Below, piece by piece: positions 5,016 through 62,319 of a stretch of DNA of 64,000 nucleotides (positions within the stretch are counted from its first letter, which is position 1; the number at the start of each line of letters is the position of its first letter). Source of the stretch: a phage. The DNA is taken from the NCBI GenBank assembly GCA_011911785.1, contig GCA_011911785.1_4084.1; one strand, 5' to 3'. Below the pieces are notes generated by a model. The model worked only from the letters and a program-made list of their open reading frames with translations, did no database searches and was not told where the DNA came from. A program made the position numbers and the translations under genes.

Positions 5016-5068
5016 GACATACTCATAAGCTGTGATATAATCATCGAAGACAAGAAAAGGAATTACAT

Positions 5069-13351: not shown

Positions 13352-13411
13352 TTCCCCATAATTTTGCAGTACTAAATATTGAACTGAAATAATGAGTAAC
13401 AAGGATGATAA

Positions 13412-15775: not shown

Positions 15776-16900
15776 ATGTCAGTCTTTAAAATTAACGAAA
15801 AATCACACTTAGAAAAAAATATGTTTTTTGATGAAAGTGTTGACATTCAACGATTTGAAAGTGTAAAATATTCAGCACTAGAGAAACTAACTGAGCAACA
15901 AAAAAGTTTCTTCTGGACACCTGGTGAAGTTGATGTAACCAAAGATAAGATTGATTTTGCAGGTTTATCACCATCTGAAAAGCATATCTTTGATTCGAAT
16001 CTAAAGCGTCAAATCTTACTTGATTCGGTTCAGGGTCGTGGTCCAAACTTGATGCTTCTCCCCTATGCATCATTACCAGAATTAGAAAACTTCATTGAAA
16101 CTTGGGCATTTTTCGAAGGTGCAATCCACAGTAAGTCATATACGCACATCATTCGTAATATCTATGCAAATCCATCAGAAATTTTTGATACTATGCTTGA
16201 TATTCCAGAAATCACCGATTGTGCGGCAGATGTGTCTAAGTACTATGATGAACTGGATGAGCTAGGTACATGGTACAAAGTACTGGGTGAAGGAACACAT
16301 AATGTCAATGGTAAAACTATTGTCGTTGATATGTACGAACTTAAAAAGAAAATGTGGCTGTGCTTGAATAGTATCAACATTCTTGAAGGCGTTCGTTTTT
16401 ACGCTTCTTTTGCTTGTTCCTGGGCTTTTGCTGAAAATAAATTGATGGAAGGTAACGCAAAGATTATCCGTCTAATCTGTCGTGATGAAAACCTACATCT
16501 TGCCGCAACCCAAATGATTCTACGTCTTCTTAAGAAAGAAGATCCAGACTTTGCAAAAATTGCAGAAGAGTGCTATGATACAGTACAAGCAATGTTCATT
16601 GATGCCATTGAACAAGAAGAAAAGTGGGCAGACTATCTATTCAAAGATGGTTCTATCATTGGGTTGAATGCAGAAATCCTAAAACAATATGTTCGTTGGA
16701 TTGGTTCTAAACGTATGTCCGGTGTTGGTGTTAAATGTCCGTACAGTGTATCAAAGAACAATCCACTACCTTGGACTGAACACTGGATTACAAGTGCAGA
16801 TGTTCAAGTCGCACCACAAGAAACTGAAATCAGTTCATATATCATTGGTGGTATTGTGAACGATGTGAATGAAGATACTTTTACTCCATTCAAACTATAA
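15776..16900 (+). CDS. nrdB: ribonucleoside-diphosphate reductase small subunit (class I)
   Basis: 374 aa; di-iron ferritin-like fold signature; directly downstream of nrdA. Confidence 0.95.
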   Translation: MSVFKINEKSHLEKNMFFDESVDIQRFESVKYSALEKLTEQQKSFFWTPGEVDVTKDKIDFAGLSPSEKHIFDSNLKRQILLDSVQGRGPNLMLLPYASLPELENFIETWAFFEGAIHSKSYTHIIRNIYANPSEIFDTMLDIPEITDCAADVSKYYDELDELGTWYKVLGEGTHNVNGKTIVVDMYELKKKMWLCLNSINILEGVRFYASFACSWAFAENKLMEGNAKIIRLICRDENLHLAATQMILRLLKKEDPDFAKIAEECYDTVQAMFIDAIEQEEKWADYLFKDGSIIGLNAEILKQYVRWIGSKRMSGVGVKCPYSVSKNNPLPWTEHWITSADVQVAPQETEISSYIIGGIVNDVNEDTFTPFKL

Positions 16901-28167: not shown

Positions 28168-28202
28168 TTGAGACAAATAAACTTTTCGTGATACAATATC
28201 AC
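28168..28202 (+). promoter_or_regulatory. sigma70-like promoter with palindromic -10 region
   Basis: TTGAGA at 28168-73, TACAAT at 28192-97 embedded in palindrome GTGATA-CAA-TATCAC (28188-28202). Confidence 0.45.
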
Positions 28203-28231
28203 AAGACACAGAGACACTAAAAGGAATTAAA

Positions 28232-38932: not shown

Positions 38933-39747
38933 GAATTTTAAATATGTTGAAATCTCTACATGAAAGTACTAAATTGGTTCAGGATGAAAAGTATCGTCGC
39001 AGTACTACAAAAGATTTAGCTTGTAGAATGTATATGCGTAGATTTGAGATTTCAAGGATTGGTAAGGGATGGGATGACATTAAACGTGATGATATCGATC
39101 CCGATGCAATCTTTAAAGCATATATGGCACGAAAGGTTTTCATTAATGAAAAAACATTTTATATTGACAGTGATAGAGAACGTGAAGTACAATTCACAAA
39201 AGGATTGTGGAAAATCTGGTGCATTGAGACATTTGGTGAGTTGTTACCTGAACCACCAGTACCAGAGACGTACAAAGAACTAAAGAACATCTTTGATAAT
39301 GAACATATACATATGAATTTTTCATTATATGAGACTGTCAATGAGGCATTGTTCTATGGTGAACTACACGGTCATAATGAATATTTTAGTTCTATGGTAG
39401 AGTTTGATTTGTTTTGTCATTTACCTGGGGTACAAAGCTGGACATCTGATCAGTACAGAGCCAGTAAGGTTGACAAACGTAAATTTTCAGCACAGAGATT
39501 TGTACAAGCAGCAATGGGTATGTATAAACTGGACTATCTGAACTGTCCAGAACCATATAAACATTTTTGGAAAGAAAGAGCACAGAAATGTTTAAACTAT
39601 GCTATCATACGTCTTATGGAAGTTTACATTTTAAAATTTAGGAATGCAACGGTGTATGATATGCCGGAGCCACCTAAAGATGAGAAGTACCCACCAGTTA
39701 AGGGTTTCAACTGGTACAGAGAGAAGAACAACAAAGGGACGTGCTAA
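38929..39747 (+). CDS. hypothetical protein (272 aa)
   Basis: ORF track; ATGA overlap. Confidence 0.5.
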   Translation: MRILNMLKSLHESTKLVQDEKYRRSTTKDLACRMYMRRFEISRIGKGWDDIKRDDIDPDAIFKAYMARKVFINEKTFYIDSDREREVQFTKGLWKIWCIETFGELLPEPPVPETYKELKNIFDNEHIHMNFSLYETVNEALFYGELHGHNEYFSSMVEFDLFCHLPGVQSWTSDQYRASKVDKRKFSAQRFVQAAMGMYKLDYLNCPEPYKHFWKERAQKCLNYAIIRLMEVYILKFRNATVYDMPEPPKDEKYPPVKGFNWYREKNNKGTC

Positions 39748-39762
39748 GGTGCGTCCTTTTTT
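39734..39762 (+). terminator. intrinsic terminator overlapping stop codon
   Basis: AAGGGACG-(10 nt)-CGTCCTTT stem followed by TTTTTTC. Confidence 0.5.
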
Positions 39763-39772
39763 CATTTAGGTG

Positions 39773-39801
39773 TTGACAATACTAATCAAGTTAGATAGAA
39801 T
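39773..39801 (+). promoter_or_regulatory. sigma70-like promoter (TTGACA-N17-TAGAAT)
   Basis: TTGACA at 39773-78 and TAGAAT at 39796-801. Confidence 0.55.
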
Positions 39802-39840
39802 AGCATTATTGATTTACTATTAATTAAAAAGAGGCTGATG

Positions 39841-40959
39841 ATGAAAGGAAAATATTTTTTCATTGAGAACAAACAAGAAATTGAAATCCAAGAGTTTGAT
39901 TACCAGTTTGTGTTGAATTCATTACTGAAAAAGTATGATCGTCGCGACAATAAAAAGTACTTTTATAATGTAATCGTAAAACGTACTTATGATTCAATGG
40001 GAAATCCCGAATTTGATGTTCGTAATTTAGAACTATCAAAAATTTACTATTCAAACACACGTTTGAATATGTTAGATCTCATGAAAGATGAAATTCATTT
40101 TAAAAATATTCAGATTCGTGATTTACCAGTGCCCCCACTTGAGCGTGAATACGAAGCATGGAAAGAAGGTCGTCTTAAACCACGTCCAGAACTTGCAGTG
40201 GTTGAAGTGCCAGCACCAATTGTTCTGACTAAAACACCAATTGATCCAGAAGATGAACGCATTGCGGATATCGAACAATGGATGGAATTTCCTGAAACTA
40301 TTAAAAAGGATTCTGTAAAAGTACTGGATTGGTTCGTAAACTTACCAGTATGTGCACAGGAAGTTGGTGTGAAGATTCAAAAAATTTCAGAGCGTCAATT
40401 GGACCTTAATGATGCATTACATAAGCATAGTGATTATGTTAGAACATTAATGAATAACTTAACCACTGCACTTGAATCGTTATTCCCATTGAAACCAACA
40501 TTTACACAAAAACTGTTTGGTAAAGCTGATATAAAGGTTCAACAGGCCGATTTACCTAAAGTAATGAAAGCATTGAATGATGCAGTGAAATATGATACGA
40601 ATAAGTTTAGTGGTTTAACTTCATTGTTTAATGAAATTCGAACTGAAGTTCGTGATATTAAAGATGAATTAGAATACGGAAAAATTGGGTGTGAGTATGC
40701 TATTCGTCGTTTGGATGATGCATTTGAATATGAACTGACTCTTGAACGTATCATGAAAATGAGCATTACCGCCGCAATGACTGAAGCTAGTATCGTTAAT
40801 GTGAGTAAACAGTATCAGATTGATATGAATAGAATGGTAGATATCCAAACTATTACTATTCCGTTGATTATCAATCGTTTACAGACACAAGTTGGAAAAG
40901 CAGTAGACGCAGATACCGCCGCGATCATTCGCAACTTAGCTTACGGCGATAAAGAGTAA
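39841..40959 (+). CDS. hypothetical protein (372 aa)
   Basis: ORF track; GAGG RBS 6 nt upstream of second ATG. Confidence 0.55.
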   Translation: MKGKYFFIENKQEIEIQEFDYQFVLNSLLKKYDRRDNKKYFYNVIVKRTYDSMGNPEFDVRNLELSKIYYSNTRLNMLDLMKDEIHFKNIQIRDLPVPPLEREYEAWKEGRLKPRPELAVVEVPAPIVLTKTPIDPEDERIADIEQWMEFPETIKKDSVKVLDWFVNLPVCAQEVGVKIQKISERQLDLNDALHKHSDYVRTLMNNLTTALESLFPLKPTFTQKLFGKADIKVQQADLPKVMKALNDAVKYDTNKFSGLTSLFNEIRTEVRDIKDELEYGKIGCEYAIRRLDDAFEYELTLERIMKMSITAAMTEASIVNVSKQYQIDMNRMVDIQTITIPLIINRLQTQVGKAVDADTAAIIRNLAYGDKE

Positions 40960-40968
40960 AAATAGTTG

Positions 40969-41016
40969 TTGACATAACTGTGTGTTGCTCGTATAATGTT
41001 TATCACAGAGCAACAC
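40969..41016 (+). promoter_or_regulatory. consensus sigma70 promoter with flanking inverted repeat
   Basis: TTGACA at 40969-74, TATAAT at 40992-97; 9-bp inverted repeat GTGTTGCTC (40982-90) / GAGCAACAC (41008-16) brackets the -10. Confidence 0.6.
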
Positions 41017-41044
41017 TATCTTAAATTAAATGAGGAATAACCTA

Positions 41045-42172
41045 ATGTCCGAGAAAGAAATCAATCCAAAAAAAGCAACTACCAAAACTTCTAAGCGTAC
41101 TACGACCAAAACCAAAGGTAATACTTTTGATGCGAGTGATATTTTCGACCAACAGTCTAAGACGTTACCAGTACTGAAAGATACAAAAGGTAACACTATG
41201 TCTTTAACTGTTCAGAACATTAACACCATTGGAACAACTGCTGGTGCAGGTGTCGGACGACTGGCTGATGAAATCATGTCAAAAGTGAACGTCACTGATG
41301 ACAATACTGAATTTGGTAAATCAATTACCACAATTTTATCACTAACCCGTGCTGTTGATATTGACAGTCTACAAGATGATAAATCAATTGTAGGTTGGGT
41401 CAAAAAACTCTTTGTCAATGCAAAACAGAAAGTTGGTGATCAGTACAAGAATAGTAAAGAGCAGATTGATGAAATCATGAACACACTCCAGGTTGGTATC
41501 AATCGCCAACATAGTGAATGTGAGTGGTTGGATACTGCTTACAATGAGAATAAAGCCTATCTATTTGAATTACGCGATACGCTGGTTGAATTGGAACAAG
41601 TTACAAAAACTCAAGATGCTAAACTGGAAGAAATGCAAGCGAACCCTGATGTGGATTCTTTCGCAATCCAAGAGCAGAAGATGATTTGTGAAGCATTGTC
41701 TAAACAGGAAGATAAGATTCGCCGTCTTATCATGATGTGTGAGCTTAGTGGCCCTCGTCTGATGAGTATGAAGAAAGTGAATCTAAACACTGTATCTAAA
41801 TTTGAAGATCTGAAATCTGTTGTCATCCCTGCATGGAAATCACAACTAGCAGAACAATTGATTTCTGAACGCCAACGCAAAGATAATGAGTTGGGTAATT
41901 TGATTGATAATGAAACTAACCGTTTACTTGAAGTGAACTCCAAAATGGTAGCAACTAATATGTTAGATGCTGCTAAAGCTAATAACCGTGGTATTGTGGA
42001 TATTAAAACATTGCGTAACGTACACAAAACAATGATCGATAGCATCGAAGCAGTACTGATTGAAGAGAAGAAAGGTAAGGAAGAACGTGAACGTGCTAAA
42101 CATGAAATTGCACAGTTGTCCTACGAACTTGAAGAAACTCTTCGCGAAATTGCTGACAAAGCTAACAAGTAA
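41045..42172 (+). CDS. hypothetical coiled-coil protein (375 aa)
   Basis: ATG 41045 with GAGGAA RBS; largely alpha-helical/coiled-coil composition. Confidence 0.55.
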   Translation: MSEKEINPKKATTKTSKRTTTKTKGNTFDASDIFDQQSKTLPVLKDTKGNTMSLTVQNINTIGTTAGAGVGRLADEIMSKVNVTDDNTEFGKSITTILSLTRAVDIDSLQDDKSIVGWVKKLFVNAKQKVGDQYKNSKEQIDEIMNTLQVGINRQHSECEWLDTAYNENKAYLFELRDTLVELEQVTKTQDAKLEEMQANPDVDSFAIQEQKMICEALSKQEDKIRRLIMMCELSGPRLMSMKKVNLNTVSKFEDLKSVVIPAWKSQLAEQLISERQRKDNELGNLIDNETNRLLEVNSKMVATNMLDAAKANNRGIVDIKTLRNVHKTMIDSIEAVLIEEKKGKEERERAKHEIAQLSYELEETLREIADKANK

Positions 42173-42175
42173 TAG

Positions 42176-42212
42176 TTGACATATAAATGTGCCCATTGTA
42201 TAATGGGCACAT
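42176..42212 (+). promoter_or_regulatory. consensus sigma70 promoter with -10 at centre of a palindrome
   Basis: TTGACA at 42176-81, TATAAT at 42199-204; palindrome ATGTGCCCATT-GTAT-AATGGGCACAT (42187-42212). Confidence 0.6.
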
Positions 42213-42240
42213 ATTTTATTAATTATCTAAGGATAATATG

Positions 42241-42939
42241 ATGGCAGATAAAGTTACACACTATGCAGTTGATATTGAATCTTTCGGAACTCCAGAACGT
42301 AGTGGTTATGATATTACCATTCCAAATTACGCAATTGTTTTAGTTCCAACTAACCCAATGAAAGATATCTCACGTTATGCATATGTTAAACTACCATTCC
42401 AAAAACAAATTGATGCTGGTCTTAAAGTTGATGCAGGTTCAATGAACTTTTGGATGAATATGTGTCAAAATGATCATAAAGGTGCATATGAAGAAGTAGT
42501 TAGTACACTCACGTTGACAGAACCAGAAATTATTTCCGGTAGTCAAAACAATTTGTATAAAACAAAAAATGTACTTGATTTGTGGAATGCACTTCGTTAT
42601 GATCTTAATGGAAATGAGAACAATATTGAAATTTGGGGTAATGGCTGTCACTTCGATTGTAGTATTCTTCAAGCAAACCATCGTAAAATGTTTGGTGTGG
42701 GCGAATTGTGGAAATACAATGCACCACAGAATGCCCGAAGTGTTAAGAATCGCCTAACTGAAGATGAAAAATTTGACATGGATTCCATTGTTGATGTACA
42801 ATTGAAAAAGTTTGTGGAGATGGTTGCTGATCATGGTCTTTATGGTCTAGAACTTCACCACCCATTATTCGATGCAGCACGTGAAGCTATCCAGGTTTCA
42901 TATTGCTTAAATGCAATCAACGAACGCGGAAACTATTAA
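42241..42939 (+). CDS. dexA: DEDDh 3'-5' exonuclease (T4 DexA-like)
   Basis: Exo I VDIESFG, Exo II GCHFDCSIL, Exo III HHPLFDAAREA; about 232 aa, similar to T4 DexA. Confidence 0.7.
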   Translation: MADKVTHYAVDIESFGTPERSGYDITIPNYAIVLVPTNPMKDISRYAYVKLPFQKQIDAGLKVDAGSMNFWMNMCQNDHKGAYEEVVSTLTLTEPEIISGSQNNLYKTKNVLDLWNALRYDLNGNENNIEIWGNGCHFDCSILQANHRKMFGVGELWKYNAPQNARSVKNRLTEDEKFDMDSIVDVQLKKFVEMVADHGLYGLELHHPLFDAAREAIQVSYCLNAINERGNY

Positions 42940-44604: not shown

Positions 44605-44633
44605 GGGGAGTACATTATTGTACTCCCTTTTTA
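44605..44633 (+). terminator. intrinsic terminator
   Basis: GGGAGTACA-TTAT-TGTACTCCC hairpin followed by TTTTT. Confidence 0.7.
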
Positions 44634-56302: not shown

Positions 56303-56473
56303 ATGAGTCTGAGTGAATCCTGGAAACAGTTCAAAGAAGAGATTGGTTATCGTGGTGTATCGATTGAACCAATCAATCGTACTGAAAGCATTAAGGCCAG
56401 TACTAACGGTACTACCTATGACCGATATGACCCACGATACGGGTTACATGAAGAAGTCAAAAAAGAAGATTGA
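56303..56473 (+). CDS. small ORF (56 aa)
   Basis: AAGGGG RBS upstream of ATG; ends just before terminator 56482-56511; below ORF-track cutoff. Confidence 0.45.
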   Translation: MSLSESWKQFKEEIGYRGVSIEPINRTESIKASTNGTTYDRYDPRYGLHEEVKKED

Positions 56474-56481
56474 CAATATAT

Positions 56482-56511
56482 CGAGAGTGTGTGATAATAC
56501 TCTCGTCTTTT
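56482..56511 (+). terminator. intrinsic terminator
   Basis: CGAGAGT-(10 nt)-ACTCTCG hairpin followed by TCTTTT. Confidence 0.6.
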
Positions 56512-62286: not shown

Positions 62287-62319
62287 TTATGAGTACTGCA
62301 AGCAGTACTCATTTTTTTT
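62287..62319 (+). terminator. intrinsic terminator
   Basis: ATGAGTACTGC/GCAGTACTCAT hairpin followed by TTTTTTTT. Confidence 0.7.

Follow-up and report, generated by a model that had tools for sequence, protein, structure and literature searches.

The 64,000-nt stretch of DNA analyzed here (contig GCA_011911785.1_4084.1, hereafter the window) comes from a jumbo phage of Escherichia, genus Asteriusvirus (2.3 kb were compared with phage A4 and proved 98.5% identical), and carries, at positions 40969–41016, a sigma-70 promoter of perfect consensus combined with a 9-bp inverted repeat, directly upstream of a telA-like gene. Comparison of the orthologous regions indicates that base pairing between the arms of the repeat is the property selected at this locus, and the explanation that we prefer, with somewhat better than even credence, is that dyad and promoter together form a composite promoter/stem-loop module, which acts on read-through RNA and derives from a family of early-promoter cassettes. 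In such a module the two halves of the dyad would pair as the arms of a conserved stem-loop, interwoven with a strong telA promoter of the sigma-70 type (early, and served by the host RNA polymerase): the 5′ arm would occupy the spacer between -35 and -10 and the 3′ arm approximately +4 to +12, with the -10 hexamer and the start site enclosed in the loop. The stem would form in transcripts that start at promoter 39773 and run past the end of the upstream gene. There it may mark the 3′ boundary of the upstream transcription unit, either by attenuation or weak termination or by stabilizing the 3′ end as a barrier, or both, and the embedded promoter would restart transcription for telA. The whole would be an insulator of the kind described as promoter-early stem-loops (PeSLs), with its origin in the early-promoter cassettes of the clade.

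The two hexamers, TTGACA and TATAAT, are separated by a 17-nt spacer (12/12 in the promoter scan), and the arms, GTGTTGCTC and its exact reverse complement GAGCAACAC, by a gap of 17 nt; the perfect TTGACA-N17-TATAAT promoter reported in the first-pass annotation is thus correct base for base, and its 9-bp inverted repeat stands with both coordinates and complementarity intact (Table 1). Exact TTGACA-N16–18-TATAAT sequences occur three times in the window (0.18 expected; 0/100 shuffles reach 3), each of them 5′ of a gene, in intergenic DNA and on the coding strand. The module occupies the 85 nt that separate the stop codon of a 373-aa gene (39838–40959), a homolog of A4_93 for which the Pfam search returned no family, from the ATG of telA, which is followed by a gene for a 3′–5′ exoribonuclease-like protein. 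As the stop codon lies only 9 nt from the -35 hexamer, the A/T-rich tract between them is short; the consensus of the A4 early-promoter family has AAAAAA at the matching position. Together with an inner helix, the 9-bp stem makes up a 15-bp imperfect hairpin with a 3-nt loop (predicted ΔG -13.1 kcal/mol; folding z-score of the promoter segment -3.16), an extension that is lineage-specific and kept only in the closest relatives. None of the Rfam covariance models matched the region 39600–42400 with E≤1.

The telA-upstream regions of related phages were gathered from GenBank, from IMG/VR contigs and from metagenome contigs, giving 19 distinct sequences. The set covers Asteriusvirus (A4, WPEC5, vB_Ec-M-J, CMSTMSU, Turkey5, JNE01, PBECO4, BF17 and EJP2), Alcyoneusvirus RaK2, Salmonella phage PHA46, Mimasvirus (GAP32 and CBB) and Eneladusvirus (fHe-Yen9-04 and Serratia BF), i.e. 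five named genera, as well as metagenomic relatives, with TelA identity to the window falling to about 45%. Synteny of the locus (upstream gene, telA and downstream genes) extends from Asteriusvirus as far as Mimas- and Eneladusvirus. A promoter of 10/12 or better is present in 19/19 of these regions (-35 TTGACA in 16/19, TTGACT or TTGACG in the others), a stem bracketing or overlapping the -10 hexamer likewise in 19/19 (in EJP2 in a shifted register), and the predicted start site falls inside the hairpin across the orthologs. Outside the window the stems measure 7–10 bp and the loops 13–29 nt, the centre-to-centre spacing of the arms ranges from 21 to 36 nt, and there are at least 8 distinct arm sequences (Table 1; TAAGTACTG is another one). 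Shuffling within individual lineages gives p-values of 0.002–0.03 in most of them. The stem of RaK2 was missed by the bracketing rule, since its 5′ arm reaches 3 nt into the -10 hexamer, 1 nt beyond the limit of the rule.

Because loop lengths differ, a whole-region MAFFT alignment misplaced the 3′ arms, and a pseudo-alignment of 18 sequences was used instead, in which the columns of the 5′ arm were set by the distance from -35 and the register of the 3′ arm was chosen for best pairing. With the register so fitted, 78.7% of the cells are paired (58.3±2.4 in shuffles), 53 cells represent double substitutions (21.6±3.4 in shuffles), and the covariation score is 0.621 (0.237 in shuffles, ≤0.231 in slid registers); for each of the three measures, 0/500 shuffles reach the observed value. 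Core columns 3–7 are paired in 18/18 sequences, four of them with 3–4 types of base pair and column 6 being invariant. The covariation, the double changes and the preservation of the core pairs in these sequences argue that the potential for base pairing is under selection. A module held together by compensatory evolution across several genera provides rare and clean comparative evidence for a functional stem.

These data bear directly on the possibility that the dyad is a chance inverted repeat, devoid of function and retained by shared ancestry. A 9-bp repeat is by itself unremarkable in the window, which contains 25 perfect inverted repeats of at least 9 bp with loops of 3–30 nt (11.2±3.2 in dinucleotide shuffles, so that about 11 are expected in 64 kb), and sharing among close relatives would be trivial. 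Its placement around -10 is unusual, an equally good stem bracketing the hexamer having p=0.004 in shuffles that preserve both hexamers. The arms have diverged at most positions and have nevertheless retained their complementarity in the 18 distinct sequences, and the shuffle tests are significant in individual lineages. We therefore find an origin by chance scarcely credible, and preservation by shared ancestry alone is rejected by the covariation.

The probable source of the module was found in phage A4, of which positions 1–50000 were analyzed along with the window. The first 50 kb of A4 form an array of small ORFans separated by gaps of 60–100 nt and flanked by promoter cassettes, more than 15 of them near-identical, with the consensus AAAAAA..TTGACAAT...T.atAGTACTG TATAAT A.TTTACATcAAG, in which the -10 hexamer is followed by A.TTTACATCAAG. 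Most of the cassettes continue into a G+C-rich hairpin in the 5′ untranslated region (UTR; GGGGAGAA...TTCTCCCC) that has no T-run. Examples of the cassette -10 hexamers lie at 15851, 17060, 17359, 18452, 18722 and 22104 of A4, and other copies exhibit a 12-bp stem around -35 (12572, 12866 and 16149). The A4 family has the appearance of a PeSL-type system, here in a jumbo phage. An AGTACT box begins 7–8 nt before -10 in 15/30 A4 promoters, and the telA orthologs with a 16-nt spacer match it at 6–7 of 7 positions, have TTTACAT(C/T)AAGAC after -10 and share TTTACATCAAG; therefore, their 5′ arm corresponds to the box of the family, and what appeared as a loop motif to the initially transcribed sequence of the family. 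Descent of the telA module from this cassette family is likely, as judged from these sequence matches. At telA an inverted copy of the box is found 8–19 nt past -10. The window contains the version that has drifted furthest, with 1/7 box positions, and yet its 9-bp dyad is perfect. The motif ATC(G/AC)AAGAC seen after -10, a part of the family consensus TTTACATCAAG, is not enriched in the window overall (3 vs 5.2 expected). In orthologs with mutated boxes, AGTGCT, GTGTTG, AGTATC and GATTGC are accompanied by the downstream arms AGCACT, CAACAC, GATACT and GCAATC, i.e. complementarity of the arms is retained and self-palindromy is lost; this pattern of complementary change argues that the feature preserved at telA is the pairing of the arms rather than the recognition of AGTACT.

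The same comparison weakens the suggestion of the first-pass annotation that the repeat looks like an operator for a dimeric regulator. According to this explanation a phage or host regulator would bind the half-sites and repress or time the telA promoter; the dyad does cover the spacer and the early transcribed region, which repressors commonly bind, and the ancestral arm, the AGTACT box, is itself a palindrome that keeps a fixed position in 15/30 A4 early promoters, with an over-representation of AGTACT (described below) that could reflect a DNA-binding protein. The inverted repeat over the spacer and start region of a strong promoter is also the arrangement of the LacI, lambda CI/Cro and LexA-type operators. 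However, those operators keep both half-site sequence and spacing, whereas the telA module varies in both: its changes are complementary rather than identical, its half-sites are 21–36 nt apart, and the arms of the window lack AGTACT. A search of the window for further copies of the dyad, which the first-pass annotation had proposed for the genome, found no second copy of it or of its 6-mer core pair, and the other dyad-bearing promoters are each of a different sequence. We thus regard an operator as very improbable, and candidates of this class were rejected on the variation of half-site sequence (at least 8 arms) and spacing and on the lack of a second copy in 64 kb. For annotation this is a reason for caution: a dyad over a promoter should not be called an operator on sight.

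The next question is in which molecule the stem can form. With the start site predicted from sigma-70 geometry (position 41004 was assumed in folding the promoter transcript), RNA initiated at the telA promoter would carry the 3′ arm alone, and the fold would therefore be possible only in read-through RNA from upstream, or in DNA. The preceding gene has its own promoter at 39773, which is the likely source of such RNA: the scan found no terminator between it and position 40982, and transcripts of the 373-aa gene are the only RNAs expected to contain both arms. The first 90 nt of promoter-initiated RNA, folded for 15 orthologs, are weakly structured and in 14/15 less stable than shuffles (z from -0.4 to +1.5), and no alternative partner of the 3′ arm and no occlusion of the Shine-Dalgarno sequence is conserved among these leaders. 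As the promoter-initiated mRNA is unstructured, the 3′ arm appears to have no other partner, and a riboregulator that sequesters the Shine-Dalgarno sequence by means of the 3′ arm was rejected because the telA leaders are open and offer no alternative pairing. On balance, the evidence favors a stem-loop in the read-through RNA.

The first-pass annotation had also considered a DNA cruciform or hairpin element. The hairpin part holds in so far as the pairing potential is conserved, and the classical cruciform is unlikely, owing to the 13–29-nt spacers, since long spacers strongly disfavor cruciform extrusion. The repeat might act in DNA, supercoiled or single-stranded, as a hairpin or cruciform that would modulate promoter opening or serve recombination; the compensatory changes keep DNA pairing as well as RNA pairing, and A·C mismatches do occur besides G·U. 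A role in recombination has moreover been proposed for PeSLs, one crossover having been mapped to the inside of a loop (PMC2839356). At telA, however, promoter geometry places the arms outside the region predicted to be melted in the open complex, the locus is syntenic and stable across genera without an indel boundary at the module, and the module is not repeated within the window; altogether, we consider a DNA-level function improbable.

If the stem-loop does act on read-through RNA, one candidate function is termination. The telA module resembles intrinsic terminators combined with a restart promoter in that it follows the end of one gene and precedes the next promoter, and the stem of the window is as stable as theirs. 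This stem has 5 G:C among its 9 bp and a 17-nt loop, or a 3-nt loop when taken as the 15-bp imperfect hairpin. The module differs from such terminators in the long loop, in not being called by the consensus scan and in the lack of a conserved U-tract. The tail that follows the stem in the window, TATCTTAAATTAAAT, is weakly U-rich and scores 1.98, within the top 9% of the background (most canonical terminators of the window score 2.05–4.85). Across the orthologs the mean is 1.14, as compared to 0.88±0.75 for the background, with several tails plainly non-U (e.g. CCCAATTAAC), so that tail scoring of the window and its orthologs revealed no conserved U-tract 3′ of the stem. A canonical intrinsic terminator was rejected on this basis. 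Given a conserved stem without a conserved U-tail, we describe the element as an attenuator or as a stem-loop that marks the 3′ boundary and protects the 3′ end of the upstream transcript; this mechanism is one that we infer from comparative data.

Several points weigh against the proposed module. With a U-tail at background level, efficient intrinsic termination seems unlikely as its conserved function, and loops of 13–29 nt are long for a terminator. The fitted register of the 3′ arm biases the percentage of paired cells and the slid-register control. It also favors G·U in the count of strand asymmetry (10 G·U vs 5 A·C cells), which is inconclusive as to RNA or DNA level, and the comparison of sense and antisense stems and minimum free energies was uninformative as to strand. 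Within the window strong stems over -10 (z from -3.2 to -3.8) accompany three and a moderate one accompanies one of the 9 intergenic promoters. Compared as a group with 33 look-alikes inside genes, the 9 promoters differ only marginally in folding (mean z -1.30 vs -0.13, p=0.07); the promoter-in-stem design is thus recurrent in the window and not universal. Searches of the literature found no transcriptome of an Asteriusvirus and no transcript-end data for phages of this clade.

The main rival of the proposed module retains the stem in read-through RNA and gives it another task. According to this explanation the stem would not terminate transcription, but would mark the read-through RNA as distinct from the promoter-initiated RNA, serving as a discriminator or processing site, either by presenting the loop (the -10 and start region) to an endonuclease or by altering the stability or translation of telA on the bicistronic RNA. 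In layout it would parallel the T4 hairpins of e, soc and 49 described below. The position of the start site within the hairpin in all orthologs would fit such a role, as would a stem conserved without its U-tail, the unusual openness of the promoter-initiated mRNA and the vicinity of the exoribonuclease gene, which adjoins telA. On the other hand, the 3′ arm ends 16 nt 5′ of the Shine-Dalgarno sequence and sequesters nothing, no alternative pairing of this arm was found, and stems of 7–10 bp fall below the length required by canonical RNase III sites; we therefore judge this explanation unlikely. A broader version, to which we assign a similarly low probability, holds that the module is a conserved, non-terminating device that separates the two classes of telA RNA, with arms descended from AGTACT boxes that may form structures around promoters clade-wide. 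If this were true, the fold would act precisely where the promoter restarts transcription, steering the processing or decay of the RNA or the release of polymerase; local initiation would take over telA expression from read-through, or read-through from local initiation later in infection, and the module might be one visible case of paired AGTACT-type boxes building structures around the promoters of the whole clade. Whatever its task, a stem conserved without a U-tail raises the question of the role of non-terminating intercistronic hairpins in phage early transcription, and a consensus promoter nested in a stem-loop is a compact natural part for tests of read-through and restart.

Table 1. 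Coordinates of the telA module and neighboring elements in the window, and arms of the stem in the window and its orthologs
Feature	Position	Strand	5′ arm	3′ arm	Remark
Canonical terminator	39733–39760	+			5′ of promoter 39773
Promoter of the preceding gene	39773–39801	+			TTGACA-17-TAGAAT, 11/12; promoter scan
TAA stop of the upstream 373-aa gene	40957–40959	+			sequence; open reading frame 39838–40959
A/T-rich tract AAATAGTTG	40960–40968	+			7/9 A/T; between stop codon and -35
-35 hexamer TTGACA	40969–40974	+			sequence, promoter scan, orthologs
5′ arm	40982–40990	+	GTGTTGCTC		spacer positions 8–16 after -35; equivalent of the AGTACTG box of the clade
-10 hexamer TATAAT	40992–40997	+			inside the loop or inner helix of the stem-loop
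Inner helix, GTATAA with TTAT·AC	40991–40996 : 41000–41003 and 41005–41006	+			loop TGT 40997–40999; RNA folds
Putative transcription start	41004–41005	+			from sigma-70 geometry, 7–8 nt past -10
3′ arm	41008–41016	+		GAGCAACAC	about +4 to +12 of telA mRNA
Remaining unstructured 5′ UTR	41017–41044	+			Shine-Dalgarno GAGGA 41032–41036
TelA-like gene driven by the promoter	41045–42172	+			Pfam PF05816, E=4.9e-38
Sister module	42176–42212	+			perfect promoter 42176–42204 interleaved with 11-bp terminator hairpin 42187–42212, then ATTTTATT; -10 partly in loop
Sister module	56470–56511	+			TTGACA-17-GATAAT 56470–56498; -10 in loop of 9-bp stem 56482–56490/56497–56505, then TCTTTT
Arms, window			GTGTTGCTC	GAGCAACAC	
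Arms, PBECO4			GTGCTGC	GCAGCAC	
Arms, RaK2			AGTGCTGTAT	ATACAGCACT	
Arms, PHA46-like			GTAGTGCTG	CAGCACTAC	
Arms, L023			TAAGTACTGT	ACAGTACTTA	
Arms, L033			GTAGTAGTGT	ACAGTACTAC	
Arms, L030/L031			GAGTATCGG	CCGATACTC	
Arms, L018/L020			AGATTGCTGT	ACAGCAATCT	
Arms, CBB			GGGTGCTGTT	GACGGCACTC	three G·U
Arms, GAP32			GAGTGCT	GGCACTC	
Arms, Serratia BF			GAGAGTG	CACTCTC	
Arms, EJP2			GGGAGTAT	ATACTCCC	shifted register

A reported system in which a promoter shares its position with a hairpin is that of the T4 genes e (lysozyme), soc, 49 and I-TevI, where read-through transcripts reportedly fold and are left untranslated, and transcripts begun inside the hairpin are translated. The hairpins of e, soc and 49 resemble the telA module in that promoter and start lie between the arms, so that only read-through RNA folds. 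They differ in that the 3′ arm of the T4 hairpins covers the ribosome-binding site, which the telA 3′ arm (ending at 41016) does not, and in that the internal promoter of telA is of the early sigma-70 type, not late or middle.

A closer parallel is provided by the PeSLs, cassettes known from the T4-type phages RB49/phi1, T4/PST and KVP40/nt-1 (Arbiol et al. 2010, PMC2839356; Comeau et al. 2014, PMC4122927). According to the same papers, a PeSL lies between genes and combines an A/T-rich tract with a consensus sigma-70 promoter and a stem-loop, the latter mostly located between -35 and -10 or overlapping -10; one such stem-loop cut the expression of a lacZ reporter like a strong terminator, and the cassettes were proposed to serve modular shuffling (PMC2839356; PMC4122927). 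The telA module agrees with this description in its sigma-70 promoter (12/12 with a 17-nt spacer, and at least 10/12 in the orthologs), in the A/T tract 5′ of -35 (7/9 A/T) and in the stem-loop around -10, situated between the stop codon (40957) and the downstream Shine-Dalgarno sequence and ATG (41045); the existence of several stem positions within one genome, that of A4, is a further similarity. It departs from the PeSLs in not being a repeated cassette in the window, where the best other match is 11 nt long (E about 1), and in residing at a syntenic, conserved locus rather than in a hyperplastic region of ORFan indels or at a recombination point. Moreover, the telA arms span -10 and the start with a loop of 13–29 nt and have neither a G/C-tract stem nor a U-tail, terminator activity was shown for a PeSL and the sequence proxies for telA (a stable stem and a background U-tail) are equivocal, and the host phages are RaK2/PBECO4-like jumbo phages and not T4-type. 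The module is thus PeSL-like in architecture and fails two defining features of PeSLs, membership in a repeat family and location in a hyperplastic region.

No description of such modules was found in the papers on CBB, RaK2, PA5oct, fEgEco12 and Sharanji: the RpoD-like promoters given for CBB come without stem-loops, promoters and terminators are listed apart for PA5oct, and the papers on RaK2, fEgEco12 and Sharanji contain nothing on the subject. The telA module therefore belongs to a known, PeSL-like kind, in a phage clade where none had been described, and extends promoter/stem-loop composites, so far T4-type, to the RaK2/PBECO4/GAP32 group of jumbo phages.

Promoter and terminator scans present the neighborhood of telA as a series of promoter–gene–hairpin units, which includes the sister module at 42176; a further sister module lies at 56470 (Table 1). 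In WPEC5, Turkey5 and PBECO4 the sequence 3′ of telA contains a stem of 14–16 bp, the arms of which flank the -10 hexamer of a perfect promoter and are followed by a T-run. Because this design is found both in the sister modules and in these three phages, a -10 hexamer within a terminator hairpin is a recurrent design of Asteriusvirus. At the position downstream of telA the modules of loci L002 (2480–2566), L005 (2368–2455) and L013 (2635–2719) have -10 inside the loop of the terminator hairpin, and the genera other than Asteriusvirus have a plain terminator only. The hairpin itself is wholly different between the window and A4 (ATGTGCCCATT...) and WPEC5, Turkey5 and PBECO4 (GAGTGCGTTTTCAA...). 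Elsewhere in the window, the promoter at 28168 (TTGAGA-18-TACAAT) has a dyad over -10 (GTGATA-caa-TATCAC, 28185–28203; z=-1.89) without a T-run. Directly past the -10 hexamers of promoters 5012 and 28168 lie ATCGAAGAC (5043–5051) and ATCACAAGAC (28198–28207), respectively, which resemble the start motif of the clade, ACATCAAGAC.

The hexamer AGTACT (extended: hAGTACTd) occurs 117 times in the window (15.4 expected), for instance at 13368, 34274, 48961, 56239, 60284 and 62914, and 229 times in the 50 kb of A4 (16.2 expected), where the most common 8-mer around it is CAGTACTG. No other palindromic hexamer stands out, and the over-representation of AGTACT across these genomes is put at 8–14-fold. 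It ranks first among all hexamers by observed/expected ratio in the window and second in A4, behind the overlapping CAGTAC, and it is enriched about 3–16-fold in every relative of the five genera (telA loci L001–L033). A search of the literature found no description of this over-representation. Its even distribution across coding and intergenic DNA and across the three codon phases points to a signal at the DNA level, and AGTACT could be the site of a phage protein that binds or modifies DNA. Some terminator stems of the window are themselves made of AGTAC(T) boxes, namely those at 44605–44628 (GGGGAGTACA/TGTACTCCCT) and at 62289–62312 (ATGAGTACTG/CAGTACTCAT, followed by T7); the over-represented palindrome therefore also serves in the stems of hairpins.

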